NCBI GenBank assembly: GCA_041661745.1
Contig: JBAZTR010000001.1
Location: forward strand, 186,471 to 250,470
DNA from: Patescibacteria group bacterium
GTDB lineage: Bacteria; Patescibacteriota; Patescibacteriia; UBA9934; GWF2-40-263
Reading direction: 5' to 3'
Length of the DNA: 64,000 nt
A program made the translations under genes and the position numbers. Below are positions 1,812-63,238 of this stretch, in pieces (positions within the stretch are counted from its first letter, which is position 1; every line of letters starts with the position of its first letter). The notes under the pieces were generated by a model, which saw only the letters and a list, made by a program, of their open reading frames with translations, had not been told where the DNA came from and searched no databases.

Positions 1812-2162
1812 TTATTTTGTCATTGTGTTAAGAATCTTCATAATTTCATTTAAAATATTTTCCACGGCGTCATAATCAGCTGCTTCACCAAAACCCAATC
1901 TTTTGGAAATAAAGGTTTGTGTCTCTAACTCCGCTCCGGAGCCAAAAGCAATTCTAAGAAAATGTTGGAATTCAACCGAACGACCGCGTCTCCTACCCTC
2001 GGCTATATTAGATGGAATAGAAACCGAGCAACGTCTCATTTGACTTGTTAAACCATAAATTTCCGAGCGAGGAAACTTTTCGGTTAATTTATAAACGAGA
2101 ATAACCAGTTCAACTGACTTTTGCCAGACAATCAAATTTTTATAAGGAAAATTCTCCAACAT
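1812..2162 (-). CDS. four-helix-bundle protein (TIGR02436; formerly 23S rRNA intervening-sequence protein)
   Basis: The 116-aa product contains WQKS..L...Y..T..FP..E.YGLTSQ.RR...SI..NIAEG and a C-terminal part that matches the family. Confidence 0.8.
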   Translation of the reverse strand: MLENFPYKNLIVWQKSVELVILVYKLTEKFPRSEIYGLTSQMRRCSVSIPSNIAEGRRRGRSVEFQHFLRIAFGSGAELETQTFISKRLGFGEAADYDAVENILNEIMKILNTMTK

Positions 2163-23337: not shown

Positions 23338-26079
23338 TTATTTTCCATGACACTTTTTGTATTTTTTTCCACTTCCACAAGGACATGGCTCGTTGCGACC
23401 AACTTGTTTTTGAGCAACCCCGGGGGCGCCCCCGGAAGTTGCGATCGCGGCCGCGGCGCCGGGTTTGCTGGAAGCAAGAACCGCACCGGCACGTTCGAAC
23501 AAAGTTCGGCCGCCTAAAGTAGCCTGGCGAACTTGAACGGCATGCACAGCAACTTTGAAGAAAGAGTTGGCAATTTCAATATTAACCCCACCAAGCAAAC
23601 GATTGAACATGCCGAAAGCTTCTTTTTTGTATTCAACCAACGGATCCATTTGTCCGTAACCGCGGAGGCCGATGCCGGTGCGCAGTTGCGTCATGGCCGA
23701 AAGGTGGTCTATCCACAAGCGATCGATCGAACGTAAAATAACATTACGCTCAAGCTCCTTAAGTTTATTTCGGTCGCCCATTTTTTCCTCAACCGTCTTG
23801 TAAGCTTCGCGAGCCGCTTCGACAATAGTTTCGATAATTTTGGTTCGGCCAGTGGCCAAAACTAATTTCTCTTTACCTTCGCCAAGTGTGCAAGCCTCAA
23901 GTTTTTTCCGCGCTTCAGCGGAAAGCGGAATCATGGTTTGCACCACTTCGATAATTTCTTTGGGATTAAAATCACCGGGTTTCTTTTCCACTGTCTCGCC
24001 AGTGTGAAACATAACCACCTGCTCAATTTCGTCTTCAACAATTTCTAAAATTTTATTTTTAAGAGCTTCGGGGTCATCTTTTTCAAAAGCTTCGACGATT
24101 TCACGGCGACGGGAGTACATGAGCTCGCGGTGTTTATTTAAAACGTCATCGTAATCAATTAAATGTTTACGAATGTCAAAGTGATGGCCCTCAACGCGAT
24201 GTTGGGCTTTTTCAATAGACGAAGTGACCATACCGTTTTCGATTGGCTGATCGTCGGGAATGCCAAGTTTATCCATCATGCCTTTAACTCTATCGGAACC
24301 GAAAATGCGCATGAGATCATCTTCCATGGAAACATAGAACTGTGTCGCCCCCGGATCGCCCTGACGACCGGCGCGACCACGAAGCTGATTATCAATGCGG
24401 CGCGATTCATGGCGCTCGGTACCAATAACAATAAGACCACCAAGAGCTTTAACCTTCTCGGCTTCTTCTTTATCTGGCGGATTACCACCAAGCACAATGT
24501 CAACGCCGCGACCGGCCATGTTAGTGGCCAAAGTTACTCCACCGGTTCGACCGGCTTGGGCGATAATTTCGGCTTCACGCTCGTGGTTTTTAGCGTTCAA
24601 AATGTTGTGCGGCACGCCTTCACGAGTAAGAAGCTGACTTAACATTTCATTTTTTTCAATCGAAATGGTGCCAAGCAAAACCGGCTGGCCTTTTTCGTGA
24701 AGTTTTTTAACTTCACGGGCCACGGCTGTAAACTTACCGACTTCGTTTTTGTAAACACGATCGGTTAAATCATCTCTTTGCGAAATTTTATTGGGTGGAA
24801 TAGTGGTAACTTCCAAACTGTAAATCTTACCGAATTCTTCGGCTTCGGTGGCGGCCGTACCAGTCATACCAGCCAGCTTGTCGTACATGCGGAAATAATT
24901 TTGGAAAGTAATGGTGGCCAAGGTTTCACTTTCGTTTTGAACCTTAACACCTTCTTTCGCCTCAATGGCTTGGTGCAGACCTTCGGAATAGCGACGGCCT
25001 TCCATTAAACGACCAGTGAATTCGTCGACAATAATCACTTCGTTGTTTTTAACCACGTAATCTTTGTCGAGTTTATATAAAGCGTGAGCTCGCAAAGCTT
25101 CTTCGGCATGATGAGCTTCGGCCCCGGTGCCGGCGTAAATATTTTCGATGCTTAACGCTTTTTCGAGTTTAGCAATGCCCTCAGCGGTTAAAGCCGCGGA
25201 ACGCATCTTTTCGTCGATGTTGTAATCTTCGCCTTCTTTCAAAAACTTAACAGCTGCAGCGAAACGCGTGTACATGTCAGTCGATTCCTCGGCTGGCGCG
25301 GAAATGATAAGCGGCGTGCGAGCTTCGTCGATTAAAATCGAGTCAACTTCGTCGACAATGGCGTAATGAAGCGGCCGCTGAGCCATTTGTTTGGTGGTGT
25401 AAACCATGTTGTCACGCAAAAAGTCGAAACCGTATTCATTATTTGTGCCGTAAGTAATATCGGCTTCGTAGGCTTCACGACGCGAGCATGGACGCAAATA
25501 ATCCGTATGGACGCGGAACGAGCCGGTTGAGTCGCGCTCTTTATCGTGTTCGCCCTCGGTCTCTTCGGTATGTTTAAAAGTTGGATCGTAAATAAAAGCC
25601 TGGTCGTGTTGAATACAACCAACCGTAAGACCAAGAGCGTGATAAACCTGACCCATCCACACCGAATCGCGCTTGGCCAGATAATCGTTGACCGTAACCA
25701 AGTGACAACCCTTCCCTTCCAAAGCGTTTAAATAAAGTGGTGCGGTTGCGGTAAGAGTTTTACCTTCACCGGTTCTCATTTCAGCAATGTTGCCTTCGTG
25801 CAAAACAATGCCACCCATAAGCTGGACATCGTAATAGCGCTGACCCAAAACACGCTTGGAGGTTTCGCGAGCCACAGCAAAAGCTTCGGGCAATAAATCA
25901 TCAAGAGTGGTACCGTTTTTTAAACGTTCACGAAACTCAACAGTTTTGTTTTTGAGTTGCTCGTCGGAAAGCGAAATAAGGCTTGGTTCAAACGAGTTGA
26001 TTTGATCAACTTGTTTATGGAGCTTAGCCAAAACCTTTTTATTAGGATCGCCGAAAATAAGATTAACAAAGTTAGACAT
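23338..26079 (-). CDS. secA: preprotein translocase ATPase SecA
   Basis: The 913-aa product has a DEAD-like motor (MRTGEGKTLTATAP, VDEVDSILIDEARTPLIIS) and a C-terminal SEC-C zinc motif. Confidence 0.95.
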   Translation of the reverse strand: MSNFVNLIFGDPNKKVLAKLHKQVDQINSFEPSLISLSDEQLKNKTVEFRERLKNGTTLDDLLPEAFAVARETSKRVLGQRYYDVQLMGGIVLHEGNIAEMRTGEGKTLTATAPLYLNALEGKGCHLVTVNDYLAKRDSVWMGQVYHALGLTVGCIQHDQAFIYDPTFKHTEETEGEHDKERDSTGSFRVHTDYLRPCSRREAYEADITYGTNNEYGFDFLRDNMVYTTKQMAQRPLHYAIVDEVDSILIDEARTPLIISAPAEESTDMYTRFAAAVKFLKEGEDYNIDEKMRSAALTAEGIAKLEKALSIENIYAGTGAEAHHAEEALRAHALYKLDKDYVVKNNEVIIVDEFTGRLMEGRRYSEGLHQAIEAKEGVKVQNESETLATITFQNYFRMYDKLAGMTGTAATEAEEFGKIYSLEVTTIPPNKISQRDDLTDRVYKNEVGKFTAVAREVKKLHEKGQPVLLGTISIEKNEMLSQLLTREGVPHNILNAKNHEREAEIIAQAGRTGGVTLATNMAGRGVDIVLGGNPPDKEEAEKVKALGGLIVIGTERHESRRIDNQLRGRAGRQGDPGATQFYVSMEDDLMRIFGSDRVKGMMDKLGIPDDQPIENGMVTSSIEKAQHRVEGHHFDIRKHLIDYDDVLNKHRELMYSRRREIVEAFEKDDPEALKNKILEIVEDEIEQVVMFHTGETVEKKPGDFNPKEIIEVVQTMIPLSAEARKKLEACTLGEGKEKLVLATGRTKIIETIVEAAREAYKTVEEKMGDRNKLKELERNVILRSIDRLWIDHLSAMTQLRTGIGLRGYGQMDPLVEYKKEAFGMFNRLLGGVNIEIANSFFKVAVHAVQVRQATLGGRTLFERAGAVLASSKPGAAAAIATSGGAPGVAQKQVGRNEPCPCGSGKKYKKCHGK

Positions 26080-26617
26080 AACGCACCTATTATGGAGTTT
26101 TGTGAAGAAAAAAGCAAGAATCGTTTCTTTCCTCTTCCCCTCTATCCCCCTCTCCAGAGGAGAGGGGGAAGTTTCGCCCCGTGTCTCCGCTCCTCGGACA
26201 GCTAACCGCCTTCAGCGGCCTGGCTCGCTAACTCGCTGGCCAACTGCGCCGAGTAAGTGGCACTCACCCCTCGGCTTGTTGGCTGCACTCGAACAGAGGC
26301 TCGCCTTCCGACCTACGGAACCGGCCGCTTCAGCCGGGCTGTCCTCCGGGGCTCGACGCGGGGCGGTCTTTTTTGAAACACCTAACCCACCCTTTAGTTC
26401 GCGCATGAGACCGTTGTTAGTAAACACGAAAAGGTAGCCGATTGCTTTATCTTCTTGAAGTATCGTGCAAAGGCGATGTTTAAGAGAACCACCAAGAGGA
26501 GAAAAGAAAAGCTTGGGCGACGAACAAAGGGTGGTTTAAAAAAGCCCTTTCTTTTCCCACTTTTCTTTGGGCTAGCAAAGAAAAGTGGAAGAGGAAGAAG
26601 ATTAAAGAGAATCTAAA

Positions 26618-26652
26618 AAACAGTTGAGTTTTAATTCAACTGTTTTCCTTCT
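26618..26652 (-). terminator. rho-independent terminator after hpf (bidirectional hairpin AAAACAGTTGA..TCAACTGTTTT)
   Basis: An 11-bp inverted repeat with flanking A/T runs lies 10 nt downstream of the hpf stop. Confidence 0.6.
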
Positions 26653-26660
26653 CAGACAAA

Positions 26661-27005
26661 TTATACCTTATCTGGTCGTGGTTCGTGTTTTCCATCAACT
26701 AATCTATCTTTGAAATCCACCACCTGCCGACGCAAATCATCTTTCATCAAATCAACAGCTTCATATAAATCTTCGGCTTCAGTACGGGCGCGAAGAACCA
26801 CACCTGGCACGGTCAAATTGGCTTCAGCAAAAAAGAATGGACCTTTAGCATGATGCTCGGAAGTTTTACCAATTTCAAGCGACACTTCCGGTTCCGGTCG
26901 AAAATCAACGGTTAGTTTTTCCAAAGACAGCAACTTTTCTTCAACGTAGCTCTTAATAGCCTCGGTCATTTCCATATTGGTCGCCTTGTTCGAAACGATT
27001 CTCAT
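26661..27005 (-). CDS. hpf: ribosome hibernation-promoting factor (HPF/RaiA, short form)
   Basis: The 114-aa product has the N-terminus MEMTEAIKSYVEEKL typical of HPF/YfiA. Its position upstream of secA matches the conserved hpf-secA pairing. Confidence 0.75.
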   Translation of the reverse strand: MRIVSNKATNMEMTEAIKSYVEEKLLSLEKLTVDFRPEPEVSLEIGKTSEHHAKGPFFFAEANLTVPGVVLRARTEAEDLYEAVDLMKDDLRRQVVDFKDRLVDGKHEPRPDKV

Positions 27006-31967: not shown

Positions 31968-32462
31968 GCCCTCACCCCCTTTCCCCCTCCCCCGTATACA
32001 AAACAAAAGATTATACGAAGGAGGGGGAGTAAAACTATTTAATTAATTTTTTTATTTTTTCTAGAACTAAATTCAAATCTTCAAAAATTTCTTTATTAGT
32101 AAATCTAACCACCTTATACCCAAATCCTTCTAATCGTTCTGTTCTCTCGGCGTCGCCTTCTTTCGAAACGGTCTCGTTATGGATTTCGCCATCTATTTCT
32201 ATTATCAGTCTTTTAGTTCGACAGCAGAAATCGGCGATATAATTTTCGATTCCGTATTGCCTGGAAAATTTTATTCCGAGATTATTGTCTCGCAAGTGTT
32301 CCCATAAAATTTTTTCAGTCTCAGTTTGATTAACTCTAAGAAACTGTCGGGTATTTTTTTGTTTAACTTTATTAACCAAACATTTATTCCGCATAATTCT
32401 TTCCCCTCCTTCGTATGCTTATTGCCTTCCGGCATACGGGGGAGGGGTTAGGGGTGAGGGCC
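31968..32462. mobile_element. MITE-like cassette: DUF559 gene bounded by roughly 65-bp G-rich imperfect terminal inverted repeats
   Basis: The left end is GCCCTCACCCCCTTTCCCCCTCCCCCGTATAC...TATACGAAGGAGGGGGAG. The right end reverse-complements to GGCCCTCACCCCTAACCCCTCCCCCGTATGC...CATACGAAGGAGGGGA. The element exactly fills the tatD-cvpA spacer. Confidence 0.6.
32035..32394 (-). CDS. DUF559 (Vsr/restriction-endonuclease-like fold) protein
   Basis: The 119-aa product has ...ILW..LR.NNLGIKFSRQYGIENYIADFCCRTKRLIIEIDGEIH...R...L...GYKVVRF, typical of DUF559. It is paralogous to 35257..35640. Confidence 0.75.
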   Translation of the reverse strand: MRNKCLVNKVKQKNTRQFLRVNQTETEKILWEHLRDNNLGIKFSRQYGIENYIADFCCRTKRLIIEIDGEIHNETVSKEGDAERTERLEGFGYKVVRFTNKEIFEDLNLVLEKIKKLIK

Positions 32463-32948
32463 TTAAATCCAAGGAATCATCGTCTGGATCGCTGAAGTGA
32501 CAGAATTTATATAAGAAACAACTTGTGAACCGCTAAACCAACCACCGATCAAAGTTGGAAACATGAGTTGTGCAAAATAAACGGCCGCTCCCACCAAAAC
32601 CAAACCTTCAATCAAACCCAAAATTCCACCAAGTAATTTATTTACAAAACCAACAAACGGCAGCCAACGCAGAAAACCAAATAATCTGTCGACAATCCAA
32701 AAAACAAAACCAACCAAACGCTGAGTGACAATAAGAATAAGAATGAAAAGGACAATTCCGGCCACGGTTGTATTGTTGGCAAATAAGAAACCTAGATAAT
32801 CAATCGCTAGCCCGGTATATTGACTGGCAACGATTGCTCCAACAATAAGGCCGACCCCATTACCAAGGATTCGGATAAAACCGAACCACAAGCCGTAAAA
32901 GGCAAAGGCTCCGACAAGGACGAGAAGGATTATGTCGACAAGAGACAT
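32463..32948 (-). CDS. CvpA-family (colicin V production-like) membrane protein
   Basis: 161-aa product with four TM helices. The N-terminus DIILLVLVGAFAFYGLWFGFIR is typical of CvpA. Confidence 0.65.
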   Translation of the reverse strand: MSLVDIILLVLVGAFAFYGLWFGFIRILGNGVGLIVGAIVASQYTGLAIDYLGFLFANNTTVAGIVLFILILIVTQRLVGFVFWIVDRLFGFLRWLPFVGFVNKLLGGILGLIEGLVLVGAAVYFAQLMFPTLIGGWFSGSQVVSYINSVTSAIQTMIPWI

Positions 32949-34546: not shown

Positions 34547-35205
34547 ACGACAATTACAAATTCGCCTTTTATACTACCTTCTTTTAATCGTTTTGTCACC
34601 TCGGAGGATGTGCCGCGATAAATGGTTTCGTGAAGTTTAGTCAGCTCGCGACCGACAACCAGTTTTCGCTCGCCGATAAGGTCCCCAAGTTCTTCCAAAG
34701 TTTTTAAGATGCGGTGCGTTGATTCGTAAAAACAAACGGTTTCTTCGGTCGCGGCGATTTTGGCAAAATACGCTTTGCGACCATTTTTGTGTGGTGGAAA
34801 GCCAAGAAACAAAAATTTGTCGGCCGGCCAACCGGAAATCGACAAAGCAGCAATGGCCGCGCACGCTCCCGGAATCGGAATAATTTGCAGTTCATCGCCT
34901 AAAGCTTTAATAGCGGCTTCAACAAACTTACCACCCGGATCAGAAATCGCCGGTGTGCCGGCATCAGTCGTTAAAGCCAACGACTTCCCTTCCTTCAACA
35001 TTTTTAATGCCTCGGCAATTCTTGCTTCGCTGGCATGTTGATTAATGGCAATCATGGGCTTTTTAATTCCCAAATGTTGGAGAATTTTTCCAGTCACCCG
35101 AGTGTCTTCACAGACAATCGCATCAACGGTTCCAAGGGTCTCGGCCGCACGGGTCGTTAAATCGGATAAGTTTCCAATTGGCGTGGCGACGATAAATAGT
35201 TTCAT
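34525..35205 (-). CDS. rsmI: 16S rRNA (cytidine1402-2'-O)-methyltransferase RsmI
   Basis: The 226-aa product has the tetrapyrrole-methylase-fold N-terminus LFIVATPIGNLSDLT...VDAIVCEDTR typical of RsmI. Confidence 0.85.
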   Translation of the reverse strand: MKLFIVATPIGNLSDLTTRAAETLGTVDAIVCEDTRVTGKILQHLGIKKPMIAINQHASEARIAEALKMLKEGKSLALTTDAGTPAISDPGGKFVEAAIKALGDELQIIPIPGACAAIAALSISGWPADKFLFLGFPPHKNGRKAYFAKIAATEETVCFYESTHRILKTLEELGDLIGERKLVVGRELTKLHETIYRGTSSEVTKRLKEGSIKGEFVIVVCPKSFT

Positions 35206-35725
35206 AGATTCCCTCTCCCCTTACCCTCCCCCGTCGTGGCAACGAGGGAGGGAGAATTATTTAAGATAAGTTTTAATTTTAATTAAAATTTTCTGCGGAT
35301 CTTCCAATACTTCTTGGTTTTTAAACCTAATAATCTTGTAGCCAAGTCTTTCTAAATTTTCTGTTCTCTCTCGATCACTTACTTTTGCTTCATAGCAATT
35401 GTGGATGTCTCCGTCTATCTCAATGATTAACTTCTTACTCCGGCAACAGAAATCGGCTATATAATTTTCTATTCCGTGCTGCCTAACAAATCTTATTCCA
35501 AGTTCGTTTCTTCGCAAATGTTGCCATAATACTGTTTCGGCATCAGTTTGGTTTTTCCGTAAAAACTGTCTGGTTACTTTTTGTTTTAGTTTATTGACTA
35601 AATGTTTTTCGAACATAACAAATAGTTCTTCCTCCCTCACTGCCGCAGTGGGGGAGGATTACCCGCCTTCGCCAAGGCTACGGCGGGTCCTCCGTAGCTT
35701 TAGCGAAGGAGGAGAGGAGAGGGCC
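35206..35725. mobile_element. second MITE-like DUF559 cassette with G-rich terminal inverted repeats
   Basis: The left end CCCTCTCCCCTTACCCTCCCCCGTCGTGGCAACGAGGGAGGGAG and the right end ...GGGGGAGG...GAAGGAGGAGAGGAGAGGGCC match the ends of the 31968-32462 element. It exactly fills the rsmI-DUF3179 spacer. Confidence 0.55.
35257..35640 (-). CDS. DUF559 (Vsr-like endonuclease fold) protein, second copy
   Basis: The 127-aa product has ...VLWQHLRRNELGIRFVRQHGIENYIADFCCRSKKLIIEIDGDIH...LGYKIIRF. Confidence 0.75.
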   Translation of the reverse strand: MREEELFVMFEKHLVNKLKQKVTRQFLRKNQTDAETVLWQHLRRNELGIRFVRQHGIENYIADFCCRSKKLIIEIDGDIHNCYEAKVSDRERTENLERLGYKIIRFKNQEVLEDPQKILIKIKTYLK

Positions 35726-36680: not shown

Positions 36681-37757
36681 CTAGCGGTGGCCGGGGGCGG
36701 CGACGATCCCGTTGATCGGAGCGGGCGGAGCGAGTCCCTCCTCGATCGAGTTGGCCACCATAGTAAGTCTGCCGGCGATCAAGGCAGCAGCCAGGAGGAT
36801 CGCCAGGACCACGCTCCCGATGACCGCCGGAACCACCCACGGCTTCATGGGGGCCGGCGGGACGGCCGGGGCAGGAGGCTCGGGCGGCGGGGGCGGCTTG
36901 GCCATGTGCGGCGTCAGCTGGTCGACCACCTCCTTAACGGCCTTGCCGACCATCTCGCCATTCCGGATCATCAGGTCGCCGACGATCTTCGGATCAACGC
37001 CGGGCGGGATCGCGATGACCGGAGCGGCGACTCGCGAGGCCGAGCCCGCGGGCGGGGTCGAGCTGCGCGGAGGAGGCGACGGCGGCGGGGCGGCGACCTT
37101 GGTCTTGAACGTGAAGGCGTCCGCCAGGAAGACGGACTCGCCACCGTTGTTCTTGACCTCGACGCTCGCCACTCCGACCGGGAAGGCGGGAGTCTTGGCC
37201 AGGATCTTGGTGTCGGACACGAACCGGATGTCCGTGCCGACGACCTTGGTCGCGGGCGTGAAGAAGAACACCTGGCAGTCGGCCGTGAAGCCGCTGCCGG
37301 TCACCTCGACCTCGAGGCCACCAGTCTCCTCGCCCTCGGTGGGCGTGATGGAGGTGACGGCGAGAACGGGAGGCGGTGGGGGCGGAGGCGGCGGTGGGCT
37401 GCTGATCGCGACGACCCAGCCGACCGCTCGGGCGTGGGCGAGCGCCCGATCCTTGAAGTCGGGCCGCCAGTCCCGGATGGCCTCGAGCTCGGTCATGATC
37501 TCGGCCTCGGAGCGGTTGGCCGAAGCCACGACCAGCTCCTCGACCTTGCAGATGATGTCGATGACCGTGGTGTCATCGTTGCCCAGCGCGGCCGCTTTCG
37601 TGAACTTGTCCGCGACATCGACCGAGACGTTGTCCCACTCGGTGAACTTCCAGGCCATGAGCGAGCTGAAGTCGCCGGCCGGGCTGGGGGCAGACCAGAT
37701 GGCCACGGCCGCATGGAACGCGGCCTGCTGTTCTGGGGTGAGGGTAGTGATGTCCAT
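36681..37757 (-). CDS. high-GC surface-type protein with an IPT/TIG-like Ig domain, poly-Pro linkers and a C-terminal TM anchor
   Basis: The 358-aa product has PPPPPPPPPP; an Ig-like segment VTSITPTEGEETGGLEVEVTGSGF...VFFF...IRFVSDTKILAKTP...VEVKNNGG..SV..D.FTF; and a C-terminal hydrophobic stretch AVIGSVVLAILLAAALIAG. GGAGA lies before the ATG. The long + strand ORFs here are Arg-rich antisense artefacts. Confidence 0.6.
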   Translation of the reverse strand: MDITTLTPEQQAAFHAAVAIWSAPSPAGDFSSLMAWKFTEWDNVSVDVADKFTKAAALGNDDTTVIDIICKVEELVVASANRSEAEIMTELEAIRDWRPDFKDRALAHARAVGWVVAISSPPPPPPPPPPVLAVTSITPTEGEETGGLEVEVTGSGFTADCQVFFFTPATKVVGTDIRFVSDTKILAKTPAFPVGVASVEVKNNGGESVFLADAFTFKTKVAAPPPSPPPRSSTPPAGSASRVAAPVIAIPPGVDPKIVGDLMIRNGEMVGKAVKEVVDQLTPHMAKPPPPPEPPAPAVPPAPMKPWVVPAVIGSVVLAILLAAALIAGRLTMVANSIEEGLAPPAPINGIVAAPGHR

Positions 37758-38064: not shown

Positions 38065-39222
38065 ATGAGCGAGATCAACATCCTGGATCTCTGGGCAGCA
38101 ACCGGCATCATGGAGGCGCTCCTGCCCCTGATCCGAGAGGTCGACAAAAGGTTCGTCCCCGAGGACCACAACCTGACCTACAACCAGGTCGAGTGGAGCC
38201 GTCACGGCGACGGATGCATCGGAAGCATCATGCTCGTCGACGAGGACGGCAAGGATCAGGAGATCGCCTGCTACCCGATCTCGACCAGGTGGAACGTGGA
38301 CATCACCACCCCCCACATGGTACTGGCCTTCCAGGTCACCAGAAGCAACAACGAACCCGAAACCGAGGACGACCTGAGCGACGGTCGCTGGTACGCCATT
38401 CCGGTCGGTCTGGCACCAACCTCGATCCGGACCAAAGTCGAGAGGGCCTTCCAGGAAGTCGGCCTCCTCAACGGTCGTCTCCCCGGCCTCAAGCCGCACG
38501 AGTGGGACGACTCTCCGGAACGCCGGTTCAACCTGGTCTTCCAGCGCCGGCGCGGCGACATGATCGCCTGGTACCAGGGGAAGGTCTGCGTCCTGGTCGA
38601 AGGTTCGCCAATCCCCAAGCCCGGCAAGGAGGTCATCTGCGAAGTGGTGACCGAGCGCCTGAGCAAGGTCGTCGTCCGCTGGACGGGCATGACCGTCGAG
38701 CAGGCCAGGAAGAGGATCGACGAACAGCGACGCCTGGCCGGTCTCCGAAGCAGCATCCGCCGGGCCGCGCGCGTGGAGCGACCCGAGCTCAAGGATCCCG
38801 TGGCCGCCATGGGGCTCGAGCCGGACAAGCTGAGCGGCGGACGCCTCAACAGCGCCTACCGCCGGCTGCGCCAGCAGGTCCCGACGACCGAGGAGGAGGC
38901 CGGCGCCAACCCGCTGGCCAAGGCCATGGTCGAAGTCGGCCTGCCCTTCCAGGCCGACAACCTAGACTGGCCGGTGTTCTACGCCGAGTACCTCGACCGG
39001 GCCGACCGGGCCGCGGTCCAGGTCCTCAAGGACAAGCGCACGAAGGAGCGCGAGGAGGCCGAACGCACGGCCACCCCGCCGCCCGTCGAGCCCGCCACCG
39101 AAGGCGAGGGCCACGAGGAAGCGGTCGCCGACCTCGACACCGCCGACGAAGACCTCCTGGTCGAGGAGTCGACCGACGACGGCTCCGCCCAGCCCCGCGA
39201 GGAGGGCGCGAACGCGAAGTAG
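38065..39222 (+). CDS. high-GC hypothetical protein (385 aa, acidic C-terminal tail)
   Basis: A long ORF with a strong RBS and its own promoter and terminator. No motif recognised. The C-terminus is Glu/Asp-rich. Confidence 0.55.
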   Translation: MSEINILDLWAATGIMEALLPLIREVDKRFVPEDHNLTYNQVEWSRHGDGCIGSIMLVDEDGKDQEIACYPISTRWNVDITTPHMVLAFQVTRSNNEPETEDDLSDGRWYAIPVGLAPTSIRTKVERAFQEVGLLNGRLPGLKPHEWDDSPERRFNLVFQRRRGDMIAWYQGKVCVLVEGSPIPKPGKEVICEVVTERLSKVVVRWTGMTVEQARKRIDEQRRLAGLRSSIRRAARVERPELKDPVAAMGLEPDKLSGGRLNSAYRRLRQQVPTTEEEAGANPLAKAMVEVGLPFQADNLDWPVFYAEYLDRADRAAVQVLKDKRTKEREEAERTATPPPVEPATEGEGHEEAVADLDTADEDLLVEESTDDGSAQPREEGANAK

Positions 39223-46037: not shown

Positions 46038-46100
46038 CCCAGTCCGCCAAGACTGGGATTTTTTTATAAACAAAAAACAACCCTCCACGAAGGAAAGTTA
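46038..46100 (+). repeat. direct repeat A: terminator module CCCAGTC-CGCCAA-GACTGGG plus T7, then AAACAAAAAACAACCCTCCACGAAGGA(A/G)AGTT
   Basis: The 62 nt are identical to 47139-47201 except 1 nt. The first hairpin with its U-run looks like an intrinsic terminator. Confidence 0.75.
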
Positions 46101-46188
46101 TCTTTGATGACTCAATTGACGGTTTGTTTTAAAACATTTATACTCGATCAGCCGTAGAATTAAACGGCAAACAAAGAGAGGCTCCTTC

Positions 46189-46443
46189 ATGAAGATCAAA
46201 CGGTTCTTGTTGGGAGGGCTCGTCTTCCTCTGCATCCCCTTCCTCGCGGGCATCGACTGCAAGAAGCGGCTCGACTGCGCCGAAGAACACGTGGCCTGCG
46301 ACCAGCGCTGTGCCGAGGCGGCCAGCACCACCGGTCAGAACATCGTCACCACCTACTTCTACTGCAACGAGTTCACCGGCGATGTCGTCTGCGAGTGCGG
46401 GCTCGGCCTGGACTACGGCAGCTTCGAAACCTGTGAAGGCTAG
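46189..46443 (+). CDS. small secreted cysteine-rich peptide (signal peptide plus 8 Cys), high GC
   Basis: MKIKRFLLGGLVFLCIPFLAGIDC... has a lipobox-like LAGIDC. The mature part has 8 Cys in about 60 aa. AGAGAGG lies before the ATG. Confidence 0.55.
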   Translation: MKIKRFLLGGLVFLCIPFLAGIDCKKRLDCAEEHVACDQRCAEAASTTGQNIVTTYFYCNEFTGDVVCECGLGLDYGSFETCEG

Positions 46444-46457
46444 GAGGAAGAACCACC

Positions 46458-47087
46458 ATGCTCATGCTTCTCGCCATCACCATCAGTGCCCTCGCGGGTA
46501 CCTACCACGTGAACTTCCCGATCGTCAGCGGAGCTCCGACCAATCCGCTCGATGACGTCTTCGTCCTCACGGTCTCGGCGTGGGACCTCGACCAGAACCA
46601 GCAGAACGGGATCTACGACTCGAGCTGGCGCTTCATCAAGTGCGAGGCCAAGGACGGCGACCTCTACGTCCACTTCACCGGGAAGAAGACGGACTGGCCG
46701 ACCAGCTGGCCCCAGCAGGTCACCTGCTCGGGCTATGGCAACACCCTGGTCGTACACCCGGTGTCTCCGAGTGTGTACGAGCCGAGCATGATCGAGATCA
46801 CCGGCGACGACGAGATCTACTTCACGATGGCCACGGGGATCACCAAGCTCCGGACCATCAAGATCCCGGACGGCGACTACGACGTCGAGAGCTGCTTCGC
46901 GGCCCACGACGACAACGACGATCTGTGGAGCGGCGTCACCTGTGACCCGATCGCGAGCGACGACGACAACTTCGTGCGCGTCTACATCACCGGCGATGCG
47001 GCCGCGGGAACCGGAACCTGCGTCATCCCGGGGTTCAACAACACCCCGGACCTGACCATCACCATCAACCTCGACGGGCGTCCCTAG
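46458..47087 (+). CDS. secreted hypothetical protein, high GC, immediately after the Cys-rich peptide
   Basis: The 209-aa product has an N-terminal hydrophobic signal MLMLLAITISALAG. It starts 14 nt after the previous gene behind GGAGGA. No motif recognised. Confidence 0.5.
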   Translation: MLMLLAITISALAGTYHVNFPIVSGAPTNPLDDVFVLTVSAWDLDQNQQNGIYDSSWRFIKCEAKDGDLYVHFTGKKTDWPTSWPQQVTCSGYGNTLVVHPVSPSVYEPSMIEITGDDEIYFTMATGITKLRTIKIPDGDYDVESCFAAHDDNDDLWSGVTCDPIASDDDNFVRVYITGDAAAGTGTCVIPGFNNTPDLTITINLDGRP

Positions 47088-47138
47088 GTAGCCCCTCACC
47101 TCCTCACGCTACACATCGCAAGACGGTGTAGCGCTGAG

Positions 47139-47201
47139 CCCCCAGTCCGCCAAGACTGGGATTTTTTTATAAACAAAAAACAACCCTCCACGAAGGAGAG
47201 T
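47139..47201 (+). repeat. direct repeat B (copy of the terminator module at 46038-46100)
   Basis: See repeat A. Further hairpins follow (GCCAGTTTAACTGGC, AGAAAAAGCTTAGCTTTTTCT) and a 12-bp inverted repeat CACCAAGCTGAG/CTCAGCTTGGTG ends at the tRNA. Confidence 0.75.
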
Positions 47202-47320
47202 TGTTTTTAGTGAGCCAGTTTAACTGGCTTCACCAAGCTGAGTCTGAATTTTATTCTAGGTGCACCAGAGAAAAAGCTTAGCTTTTTCTCTTACAACAGA
47301 ATAAGAAACCAAGCTCAGCT

Positions 47321-47395
47321 TGGTGACCCCACCGGGAATCGAACCCGGATTTGCGCCGTGAGAGGGCGCCGTCCTAACCGTTAGACGATAGGGCC
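47321..47395 (-). tRNA. tRNA-Glu (anticodon CUC), CCA encoded
   Basis: The minus strand reads GGCCCTA-TC-GTCT-AACGGTTA-GGAC-G-GCGCC-CTCTCAC-GGCGC-AAAT-CCGGG-TTCGATT-CCCGG-TGGGGTC-A-CCA. The cloverleaf is complete, with U33, A37 and a canonical T-loop. Confidence 0.85.
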
Positions 47396-47638
47396 ATTAT
47401 AATTGCCATCTTTTAATTGTTTACGAATGAACCCTGAATTTTTTATTTGTTTTTCCCTTTGCAAAGCCTCTGTTTTACTCTGAAATTCCTCAGTATAAAT
47501 TAACTTATAAGGTCGATATGGTTTTGTTGATTTTGTTTTTCCACTATTGTGTTGTTTCAATCTTTTGTCAAGGTCAGCAGATGAACCTATATATAATCGT
47601 TCATCTTTTTCACTTTGTAAAACATAGACAAAATACAT
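47381..47638 (-). CDS. GIY-YIG nuclease (small UPF0213-type, homing-endonuclease-like), 3' end overlaps the tRNA 5' end
   Basis: The product MYFVYVLQSEKDERLYIGSSADLDKRLKQHNSG...PYKLIYTEEF.SKTEALQREKQIK is the classic GIY-YIG module. Its last 5 codons (GPIV plus stop) are encoded by tRNA positions 1-15. Confidence 0.8.
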   Translation of the reverse strand: MYFVYVLQSEKDERLYIGSSADLDKRLKQHNSGKTKSTKPYRPYKLIYTEEFQSKTEALQREKQIKNSGFIRKQLKDGNYNGPIV

Positions 47639-47648
47639 AGTTTTCAAA

Positions 47649-62050: not shown

Positions 62051-62160
62051 TAGTATCTCCCCCTATCCCCCTCTTTAGCAAAGAGGGGGCAAAACTATTT
62101 CTCCCTCCCTTTACTAAAGGGAGGGGTGGGGAGAGATTTTAAATTAACACACAAATCCCC
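62051..62160. repeat. pair of G/C-rich hairpins (CCCCCTC-TTTAGCAAAG-AGGGGG; CTCCCTCCC-TTTACTAAAG-GGAGGGG) of the family-3 type
   Basis: They have the same CCCCTC/GAGGGG flavour as the DUF559-element TIRs and the hairpin at 26137-26175. Confidence 0.55.
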
Positions 62161-62308: not shown

Positions 62309-62602
62309 GTGTCCGAGACTCGTCCGTATCACGAAACCCTTCCGGGGTTGATCCGTTCCGTTGAAACGAGCGACTCCGCCATCTCGCTCGCGGCGTTCAT
62401 CGTCGAGACCACCCTCCCCGGCAACTTCGACAAGGTGGCCGAAGCCTGGCGCAATCTCATGACCAGCCTGGACTTCAAGGACGTCAACGAGTTCGGCGTC
62501 CTCGACTTCGTCGAGGAGCAGCGGAAGGTGGCCGAGGAGAAGGCCAAGAACCCCGAGCGCCTGCGCGAGATCTTCGACGTCGGCTCTGGACACGGGTGCT
62601 AA
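62309..62602 (+). CDS. high-GC small protein, paralog A (97 aa), GTG start
   Basis: MSETRPYHETLPGLI... It has a GGAGG RBS, a conserved upstream hairpin CCGCGAATACCTCGCGG and a weak terminator. It is homologous to the N-terminal 95 aa of the next gene. Confidence 0.55.
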   Translation: MSETRPYHETLPGLIRSVETSDSAISLAAFIVETTLPGNFDKVAEAWRNLMTSLDFKDVNEFGVLDFVEEQRKVAEEKAKNPERLREIFDVGSGHGC

Positions 62603-62749
62603 CTACCCTTCTCGCTTCGACTTTCACCACAAGGTGGAGGTCTTTTTTTATTTAGGAATTAAAACATTTTTAAAACCATTGACGCCTAATTTCAAAAGTG
62701 TTAACTTGTTCTGTCCGCAAATACCTTGCGGCTTCCAGAGGAGGCTTCC

Positions 62750-63238
62750 ATGCTCGAGACCCGCCCGTACCACAAATCCCTTCCCTGGCTGATCCAGTAT
62801 TCCGAAGGGACGATCGACTCCACCGTCTCGCTCGGAACGTTCATCCGCCACACCACCCTGCCCGACAACTTCGACGAGGTGGCCGAGGCCTGGAGCAACC
62901 GCCTGCGCGACCAAGGTCTCGACGACACCGAGTTCGGAGTCCTCGCCTTCATCGAGGAGCAGCGGAAGGTGGCCGAGGACAAGAAGAGGCAGCAGCTCCT
63001 GGACACCAAGCTCGAGGACCTCCACAAGTCGCCGGTCCTCAGCACGAGCCACCGGGTCGACCTCGGAATCAAGACCTTGGGTGGCATCGTGGCGAGGACC
63101 GAAGCCGAACTCCTCGAGATCTACGGCCGGGAGTCCTTCGACATGATCATGGACGAGCTCCGCTCGCTCGGCCTCGAGCCGCGCAAGCCCGAGCGCCGGC
63201 GCGAGCTCTTCGACACCGAGTTCGCCCACGACTCCTAG
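62750..63238 (+). CDS. high-GC small protein, paralog B (163 aa) with a C-terminal RNAP alpha-CTD-like helix-hairpin-helix
   Basis: MLETRPYHKSLPWLI... It has a GAGGAGG RBS. The C-terminus LSTSHRVDLGIKTLGGIVARTEAELLEIYGRESFDMIMDELRSLGL resembles the RpoA alpha-CTD. The terminator has a UUCG tetraloop hairpin plus T-run (63266-63295). Confidence 0.55.
   Translation: MLETRPYHKSLPWLIQYSEGTIDSTVSLGTFIRHTTLPDNFDEVAEAWSNRLRDQGLDDTEFGVLAFIEEQRKVAEDKKRQQLLDTKLEDLHKSPVLSTSHRVDLGIKTLGGIVARTEAELLEIYGRESFDMIMDELRSLGLEPRKPERRRELFDTEFAHDS

Follow-up and report, generated by a model that had tools for sequence, protein, structure and literature searches.

The spacer between hpf and secA in the window (the whole 64,000-nt stretch analyzed here, positions 186,471 to 250,470 of contig JBAZTR010000001.1 of a Patescibacteria group bacterium) contains a 192-nt GC-rich core element. 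We give about even chances to the interpretation that this core is a structured element of small size, non-autonomous and spread by horizontal transfer, whose insertion sites are the T-runs of terminators. Our confidence is likewise evenly balanced that it represents a cassette without open reading frames (ORFs), resembling miniature inverted-repeat transposable elements (MITEs) and circulating among Uhrbacteria-like Patescibacteria, rather than a housekeeping RNA or a secA leader. This interpretation was based on the absence of the core from orthologous sites, its near-identical copy at an unrelated site, the existence of an empty site, its fixed position between a hairpin and a T-run, its non-coding nature and its sporadic distribution.

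The host of the window is a Candidatus Uhrbacteria-like member of the Patescibacteria, with SecA matches of 79-91% identity, several of which come from named Uhrbacteria. Most window genes, including hpf and secA, are encoded on the minus strand, and the hpf-secA spacer (26080-26660) is among the longest non-coding gaps in this densely packed stretch. Its measured length of 581 nt agreed with the 580 nt given in the original prediction, a model's annotation made from the letters of the window alone. Relatives that keep the murB-acp-hpf-secA order have short hpf-secA spacers, with 121 nt in L083/L084 (SecA 89% identical), 75 nt in L085 (86%) and 118 nt in L089 (81%), none of them showing similarity to the block; the spacers of L001 and L004 measure ~100-200 nt. 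In L083/L084, L085 and L089, the hpf terminator is directly followed by TTCTTGC-(T-run)-...CATAAT-...ATG. A promoter-like element (TTCTTGC..T-run..CATAAT/CATACT) could be aligned in L083, L085 and L086, where its spacing to the secA start was similar to that observed in the window. Because the closest Uhrbacteria relatives (SecA 81-89%) have spacers of 75-121 nt, the ~490 nt found between the hpf terminator and the conserved secA promoter are, judged from these alignments, a lineage-specific insertion. As the promoter-like element is kept in relatives lacking the insertion, the GC-rich block lies upstream of this element. The proposal that the block is a conserved non-coding RNA (ncRNA) or leader of the hpf-secA spacer did not survive this comparison, with the syntenic 75-121-nt spacers of the nearest relatives lacking it. 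A GC-rich stretch upstream of secA in L088 was set aside as a further candidate, its sequence being unrelated to the block.

The insert is made of four parts (Table 1), namely an AT-rich hairpin, a 149-nt domain, the GC-rich domain and a C-tract/G-tract hairpin with a purine tail. The hexamer GATTCT is present at both insert edges (26117-26122 and 26607-26612) and may correspond to a target duplication of the 490-nt insert, the match being short and the flanks T-rich. Hairpin B has an architecture like that of the C-tract/G-tract hairpin modules described below, but is AT-richer, and may form the second end of a composite insertion. Neither domain 2 nor hairpin B, both part of the lineage-specific insert, was matched in the second copy or elsewhere in the fetched loci. 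Given that CATAAT lies only 9 nt before the ATG (26079), the secA mRNA may be leaderless or nearly so. The consensus promoter scanner did not list the TTGCTT-17-CATAAT element, and its coordinates were read from the sequence.

Table 1 Coordinates of the hpf-secA spacer features, of the states of the second site and of the hairpin modules
Feature	Position	Strand	Description
secA	23338-26079	minus	
secA promoter-like element	26089-26117	minus	TTGCTT-17 nt-CATAAT; ends 9 nt before ATG; kept in insert-free relatives
Purine-rich tail of hairpin module	26121-26144	minus	AUAGAGGGGAAGAGGAAAGAAAC; similar tail in second copy, UUUGGGGGAGAGGAAAAAAGAC
Hairpin C, C-tract/G-tract	26145-26169	minus	perfect 11-bp stem, TCCCCCTCTCC-AGA-GGAGAGGGGGA
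GC-rich core element	26175-26366	none assigned	192 nt, 68-69% GC; closed multi-helix domain, ends pair
T-run (T CTTTTTT GA)	26367-26376	T-run on plus, A-run on minus	abuts core; diverged counterpart in second copy, GGTTTTATTTTTT
Domain 2	26387-26535	none assigned	149 nt, native GC; 14-bp closing stem, CCACCCTTT.GTTCG / CGAAC.AAAGGGTGG
Hairpin B	26549-26596	minus	21-bp imperfect; pyrimidine run before, purine run after
hpf intrinsic terminator	26615-26648	minus	13-bp stem, then U6
hpf	26661-27005	minus	Pfam Ribosomal_S30AE
Second site, empty	L094 2821-2892		72 nt; flanking proteins 72% and 63% identical; terminator, T7, promoter-like TTTATGTTACAG...ATG
Second site, GC core and hairpin	L091 11864-12203		341 nt
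Second site, DUF559 gene and hairpins	L095 4882-5498		~620 nt; flanking protein 66%
Hairpin modules, window	31975-32030, 32395-32470, 35200-35260, 35617-35725, 62059-62135		
Hairpin modules, L091	18410-18505, 18866-18930		
Hairpin modules, L095	4960-5003, 5355-5440		

A second copy of the core was found on contig L090 of a Patescibacteria metagenome-assembled genome with 44.5% GC. Blastn against L090 aligned only window positions 26125-26374 (91.6% identity over 250 nt). Within this alignment, the core and L091 11919-12110 were identical in 188 of 192 positions (98%), and the highly similar region was sharply bounded. The shared core coincided exactly with the domain closed by a terminal helix, the strands of which (CGCCCCGTGTC at 26175-26185 and GACGCGGGGCG at 26355-26365) make up a terminal inverted repeat (CGCCCCGYGTC) with 10/11 pairing. 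The core differences (positions 26209, 26257, 26262 and 26268) included no compensatory pair, three of the four being located in one apical hairpin (26257-26268) and the other at an unpaired position. At the place of hairpin C, the second copy has a hairpin with another stem sequence (CCCCCTCCC/GGGAGGGGG), a change that keeps the base pairs, and the adjacent hairpin module with its purine tail was ~70% identical between copies, with indels, versus 98% for the core. In both copies, 5-6 nt separate the hairpin stem from the core, which is followed by the T-run, and taking out the core leaves the hairpin plus the T-run in both genomes. The genes flanking the L091 copy are unrelated to hpf and secA (alpha/beta hydrolase-like, a 620-aa orphan, Nramp, radical SAM and PGA_cap). 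Each copy lies in the gap between a pair of co-directional genes, past the terminator T-run of the upstream gene and ahead of the promoter of the downstream one, at 50-100 nt from the start of the latter, with the same relative orientation in both genomes.

Orthologues of both L091 flanking genes were found in other assemblies (L094 and L095), and the orthologous site presented three states in three related genomes, being either empty, occupied by the core and a hairpin, or occupied by a DUF559 gene and hairpins (Table 1). In the latter state, a 138-aa DUF559/MTES_1575 gene is bracketed by C-tract/G-tract hairpins. Since the L094 spacer is empty, the L091 lineage is the one that, on this comparison, gained ~270 nt (A-run, core, hairpin and tail), either within the terminator T-run or adjacent to it. 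The three states mark the site as an insertion hotspot positioned directly after this T-run. The 98%-identical copy at an unrelated locus of another genome, together with the empty counterpart of that locus in a relative, showed the core to be a discrete inserted, probably mobile, element.

We have then compared the hairpin that accompanies the core with similar structures. In gene orientation, the module combines a run of pyrimidines with a C-tract-loop-G-tract hairpin and another G-rich tract. It is present on both sides of the DUF559 genes (PD-(D/E)XK nucleases) at 32035-32394 and 35257-35640 of the window and of that in L091, and two gene-less hairpins occur upstream of uvrB (62059-62135). 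The 3' G-rich tract of the modules is Shine-Dalgarno-like, with 4-13 nt between its end and the next start codon, and may be masked by the module C-tract. The segment 26121-26169 has the same design, with a C-tract hairpin, a G-tract and a purine tail that are oriented like the flanking genes and next to cargo. DUF559 genes and these hairpins are found together in the window, L091 and L095, and neither was seen in ~70 kb from the closer SecA relatives L081-L089. By its design and context, the hairpin beside the core is a member of a dispersed family linked to an insertion-like small nuclease gene.

The GC content of 100-nt windows across 26150-26399 was 0.63-0.66, reaching 0.672 at 26170-26370 and going down to 0.50 by 26350-26449. 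The GC-rich block of the original prediction was thereby present, although with ~200-220 nt instead of 250 nt. The AT-rich genome against which it had been contrasted turned out to be moderately AT-rich at most (mean GC of the window of 46%, 0.461), with the block well above this mean. Codon-position GC in the block was flat (0.63/0.69/0.70), compared with a GC at third codon positions (GC3) of 0.87-0.92 in coding islands of high GC elsewhere in the window. Coding signal was present in every other GC-rich stretch of the window. The overlapping ORFs had no Pfam match, and a six-frame concatenated query of the block against 5.8 billion protein sequences gave no match at E<=10. Although the minus-strand ORF is uninterrupted in both copies, the three substitutions inside it (3/3) are non-synonymous and the start codons differ. 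These results agreed with the earlier view that the block has no credible ORF. They also left only part of the alternative offered there, a degraded high-GC insertion: the insertion was found, whereas the six-frame protein query, equivalent to the BLASTX refutation named there, was negative, and the block is not a degraded gene fragment.

The block was strongly structured, as had been proposed. The z-scores of the whole-spacer fold were -6.9 (minus strand) and -8.5 (plus strand), and those of 26170-26385 were -5.2 and -5.5, respectively, with none of the 100-200 shuffled controls folding as stably. The core fold was multi-branched, with 63-66 base pairs and energies of -107.7 (minus) versus -101.4 kcal/mol (plus), the minus-strand structure being rod-like and ~190 nt long. 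The individual elements listed in the original prediction could also be located. The hairpin at the start of the block, there assigned to a "family 3," has a perfect 11-bp stem (26145-26169); GGACAGC (26196-26202) and GCTGTCC (26339-26345) pair in the minimum-energy fold of both strands; and the CCGGC-CGCTTCA-GCCGG hairpin (26321-26337) and the plus-strand T-run (26369-26374) are present. As sequences, the core halves were weakly complementary, with 10 of 300 shuffles scoring equally; an internal direct repeat was not significant and an inverted repeat was marginal. Neither the G-U versus A-C asymmetry nor the four substitutions gave a strand signal in the core, and consensus scans found no sigma-70-like promoter beside either copy, on either strand.

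Searches for known RNA families did not identify the element. At the gathering threshold, Rfam gave no match to signal recognition particle (SRP) RNA, 6S RNA, RNase P RNA, transfer-messenger RNA (tmRNA) or raiA RNA in the whole window. A permissive-filter cmscan at E<=10 of 25900-26800 (901 nt), and likewise of L090, returned none of these models, its only matches being of the microRNA/small nucleolar RNA type, at chance level and all on the AT-rich hairpin 26549-26596. ARAGORN detected no tmRNA. The Rfam check suggested in the original prediction was hence negative at E<=10, in line with its own failure to match RNase P, tmRNA or 6S consensus sequences. The resemblance of a GUAGGUC-GGAA-GGCGAGCC stretch to SRP RNA domain IV found no backing, as no SRP model matched at that threshold.

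Further copies and relatives of the core were also sought. Blastn in distant mode against plasmids and phages gave only a 43-nt low-complexity Pseudoalteromonas match in the AT-rich part, and viral contigs scanned with 21- and 24-mers from the core gave zero matches. Self-BLAST of the window and BLAST of all fetched loci revealed no further core copy. A covariance model (R1), applied to the window and to Patescibacteria loci totaling ~0.49 Mb, recovered only the known copies; built on two nearly identical sequences, this model finds close relatives only. A scan of Joint Genome Institute (JGI) metagenomes with a core 21-mer gave one match (L090), though several close relatives come from JGI samples. 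Bridge RNA/IS110, IS200/IS605 palindrome-associated elements (PATE) and retron msr-msd were set aside as candidates on Rfam and Pfam evidence only, for having no associated gene, no family match or misfitting boundaries. On the same evidence, integron attC sites, group I introns and plasmid single-strand origins were set aside for lacking a gene, a family match or fitting boundaries. The searched literature contained nothing relevant on mobile DUF559 or on miniature inverted-repeat elements in Patescibacteria.

If the core is mobile, it and the adjacent hairpin module would have been inserted together where T-rich sequence separates a terminator from the promoter that follows. The core would move as DNA, with the enzyme supplied in trans. 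The DUF559 nuclease is the only candidate enzyme in view and could act in a homing-like way, breaking and copying at targets made of a hairpin plus a T-run. The mobilizing machinery, or a single-stranded intermediate, could recognize the compact fold. Such a site would be tolerated because neither terminator nor promoter is interrupted, and antisense transcription could in addition be halted by the plus-strand terminal helix with the U-run that follows it. The recently moving unit may be the core alone, targeting the T-run by pre-existing hairpins, or else cores and modules may recombine in a modular fashion.

Several observations weigh against this mobile-element interpretation. The identity of ~70% in the hairpin module versus 98% in the core does not fit a single recently moving unit, unless modular recombination takes place. 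The fold is a complex multi-helix one, because the core halves are only weakly complementary, and as such resembles a functional RNA more than it does a MITE with a simple palindrome. There are only two independent copies, one per 64 kb in the window and one per 22 kb in L091, and MITEs are usually multi-copy. As to target-site duplications in the T-rich flanks, GATTCT at the insert edges, TTTA in L090 and the T-runs around the core are suggestive at most, none being unambiguous, and the fetched regions contain no orthologue shared by the two hosts. No transposase, integrase, reverse transcriptase or TnpB was detected among the 54 window ORFs scanned, and tblastn found no DUF559 gene or remnant in the spacer. 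The presumed DUF559 link of the core is suggested by co-occurrence and a shared site, not by adjacency.

The same data can be read in terms of a horizontally transferred small-RNA gene, with the core being a trans-acting or protein-binding ncRNA that has its own promoter and is perhaps plus-stranded, which we regard as possible, albeit doubtful. The stable and complex fold (z about -5.3, 63-66 pairs, multi-branched, no plain palindrome) is compatible with this, as are the high identity sharply bounded by the terminal helix and the T-run kept right after this helix on the plus strand of both copies. The clustering of three of the four substitutions in one apical hairpin, with the fourth unpaired, hints that the rest is constrained. 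Moreover, the core is a GC-rich island in a GC-poorer genome, the classic signature for finding structured RNAs. However, neither strand of either copy has a sigma-70-like promoter, and the U-run is preceded only by the long-range closing helix, not by a local terminator hairpin. In addition, G-U strand asymmetry is lacking, the copies are too similar for covariation, no Rfam family matches and most close relatives do not have the element. A divergent housekeeping RNA (SRP, 6S, RNase P or tmRNA) or a raiA-motif RNA is an explanation that we consider extremely improbable. The loose GGAA-tetraloop likeness, the rod-like ~190-nt minus-strand fold and the proximity to hpf had pointed in this direction, raiA-motif RNA being associated with hpf/raiA genes in other phyla. 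Yet no Rfam model of these families at E<=10 (in the 901 nt or in L090) and no ARAGORN tmRNA was obtained, the element is absent from the syntenic spacers and from nearly all relatives, and its second copy is not near hpf.

A role in cis, in which the core would be transcribed by read-through as a minus-strand leader, RNA stabilizer or insulator for the downstream gene (here secA), appears improbable. It would agree with the same orientation of the element relative to co-directional genes in both genomes, 50-100 nt upstream of the next start, with the Shine-Dalgarno-like G-tract that ends modules elsewhere 4-13 nt before start codons, and with the slightly higher stability of the minus-strand fold. 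Nevertheless, the downstream genes are unrelated (secA versus alpha/beta hydrolase-like) and relatives have the orthologous genes without the element, which, being between a terminator and a conserved promoter, need not be on the secA mRNA; the orientation agreement in two cases has itself a 50% chance expectation. For secA in particular, a cis-regulatory role seems unlikely because relatives without the element drive secA from the same promoter and an unrelated gene follows the second copy. It is also quite improbable that the core is an inert scar of foreign high-GC DNA, that is, a decayed piece of high-GC genes or terminators with no function or mobility. The window does contain at least five high-GC coding islands (GC3 ~0.9), each ending in a GC-rich terminator and one being flanked by ~68-nt direct repeats that include the terminator, and high-GC orphan genes are also carried by L091 and L081. 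Against this, the core has no codon periodicity, no protein similarity in any frame and no similarity to the other islands, whereas its boundaries recur unchanged at an unrelated locus, with 98% identity, as would not be expected of random decay, and it folds far more stably than its composition explains.

A broader possibility, which we put forward only as a speculative and rather unlikely one, is that the 192-nt core serves an undescribed Patescibacteria mobile-cassette system as non-coding cargo, perhaps in the form of an RNA cofactor or a recognition module. Such a system would have C-tract/G-tract hairpin ends and DUF559-mediated homing into terminator T-runs, with the nuclease gene itself, structured non-coding DNA or possibly high-GC orphan genes as alternative cargo. 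Genomes of the Candidate Phyla Radiation (CPR)/Patescibacteria are small and dense, and their mobile DNA and ncRNAs are little known. If mobile, the core would be the first example in the searched literature of a small structured non-coding element moving between such genomes into the gap between terminator and promoter. It would tie DUF559, a widespread and uncharacterized nuclease family, and C-tract/G-tract hairpins to insertion hotspots, and may connect to the high-GC orphan genes. It also illustrates that an intergenic GC spike alone is not proof of a conserved regulatory RNA.

The protein-coding islands of the window have 62-69% GC and a GC3 of 0.87-0.92, and are located at 36681-37757(-), 38065-39222(+), 46189-46443(+), 46458-47087(+), 62309-62602(+) and 62726-63238(+); further high-GC islands occur in L091 (15279-17175) and L081 (674-2333). 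They have AT-rich promoter-like flanks and a GC-rich terminator, and their products are orphans in Pfam and PHROGs, except for one TIG/IPT domain. These islands look like repeated acquisitions of foreign genes, likewise in related genomes. Direct repeats of ~68 nt with 3 mismatches (46039-46106 and 47142-47209) flank the two-gene island 46107-47141, each containing the terminator CCCAGTC..GACTGGG plus T7, followed by AAACAAAAAACAACCCTCCACGAAGGA. This arrangement resembles the duplicated attachment sites of an inserted cassette. The genes at 62309-62602 and 62726-63238 are adjacent high-GC orphan paralogues (ETRPYH..LP.LI...TTLP.NFD.VAEAW...FGVL.F.EEQRKVAE), which are a tandem duplication inside an acquired island. 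Other small genes of the window include an 88-aa free-standing GIY-YIG nuclease gene (47381-47647(-)) that overlaps the end of tRNA-Glu (47321-47395(-)) and a gene for a 23S_rRNA_IVP (four-helix-bundle) protein (1812-2162(-)). GIY-YIG and 23S_rRNA_IVP are small gene kinds often found as selfish or accessory insertions.

Compared with known systems, the core shares with GC-island ncRNAs (raiA motif, 6S, OLE-type) the intergenic GC spike, the significant fold and the lack of an ORF, but it differs from them in having no family match, no locus conservation and a sporadic occurrence. Its insertion a few bases after a stem-loop, in a T-run and with fixed orientation, is reminiscent of class C group II introns and of insertion sequences (IS) that target terminator or repetitive extragenic palindromic (REP) hairpins. 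Unlike class C introns, with at least 600 nt expected, the 192-nt core is far too small. It has no domain V/VI, no Intron_gpII match at E<=10 and boundaries that do not fit GUGYG / AY, no reverse transcriptase or IS110/IS200-type gene is located nearby, and the target hairpin is antisense to the flanking genes. The three states of the second site, empty in L094, with core and hairpin in L091 and with a DUF559 gene in L095, correspond to the pattern expected of break-and-copy by homing-endonuclease cassettes, although the core itself is without a nuclease gene. In the searched literature, there was no documentation of DUF559 mobility or of cleavage at hairpin plus T-run targets, both being only predicted here.

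The comparison with MITEs and related elements (Correia, ERIC and RUP) brings out both differences and similarities. The core is much GC-richer than its host, has a complex multi-helix interior and lacks a clear target-site duplication and a cognate transposase with matching ends. Its copy number is apparently low, with one copy per sampled region, and neither multiple copies per genome nor an autonomous relative with the same ends was found in the 64 kb and 22 kb covered. Like these elements, however, it is small (about 200-250 nt), non-coding and intergenic, with a short terminal inverted repeat (10/11 pairing, overall arm complementarity being weak) and a stable structure if transcribed. 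Near-identical copies occur in different contexts, and the unit is present at some sites and absent from orthologous ones, as in L091 versus the empty site of L094.

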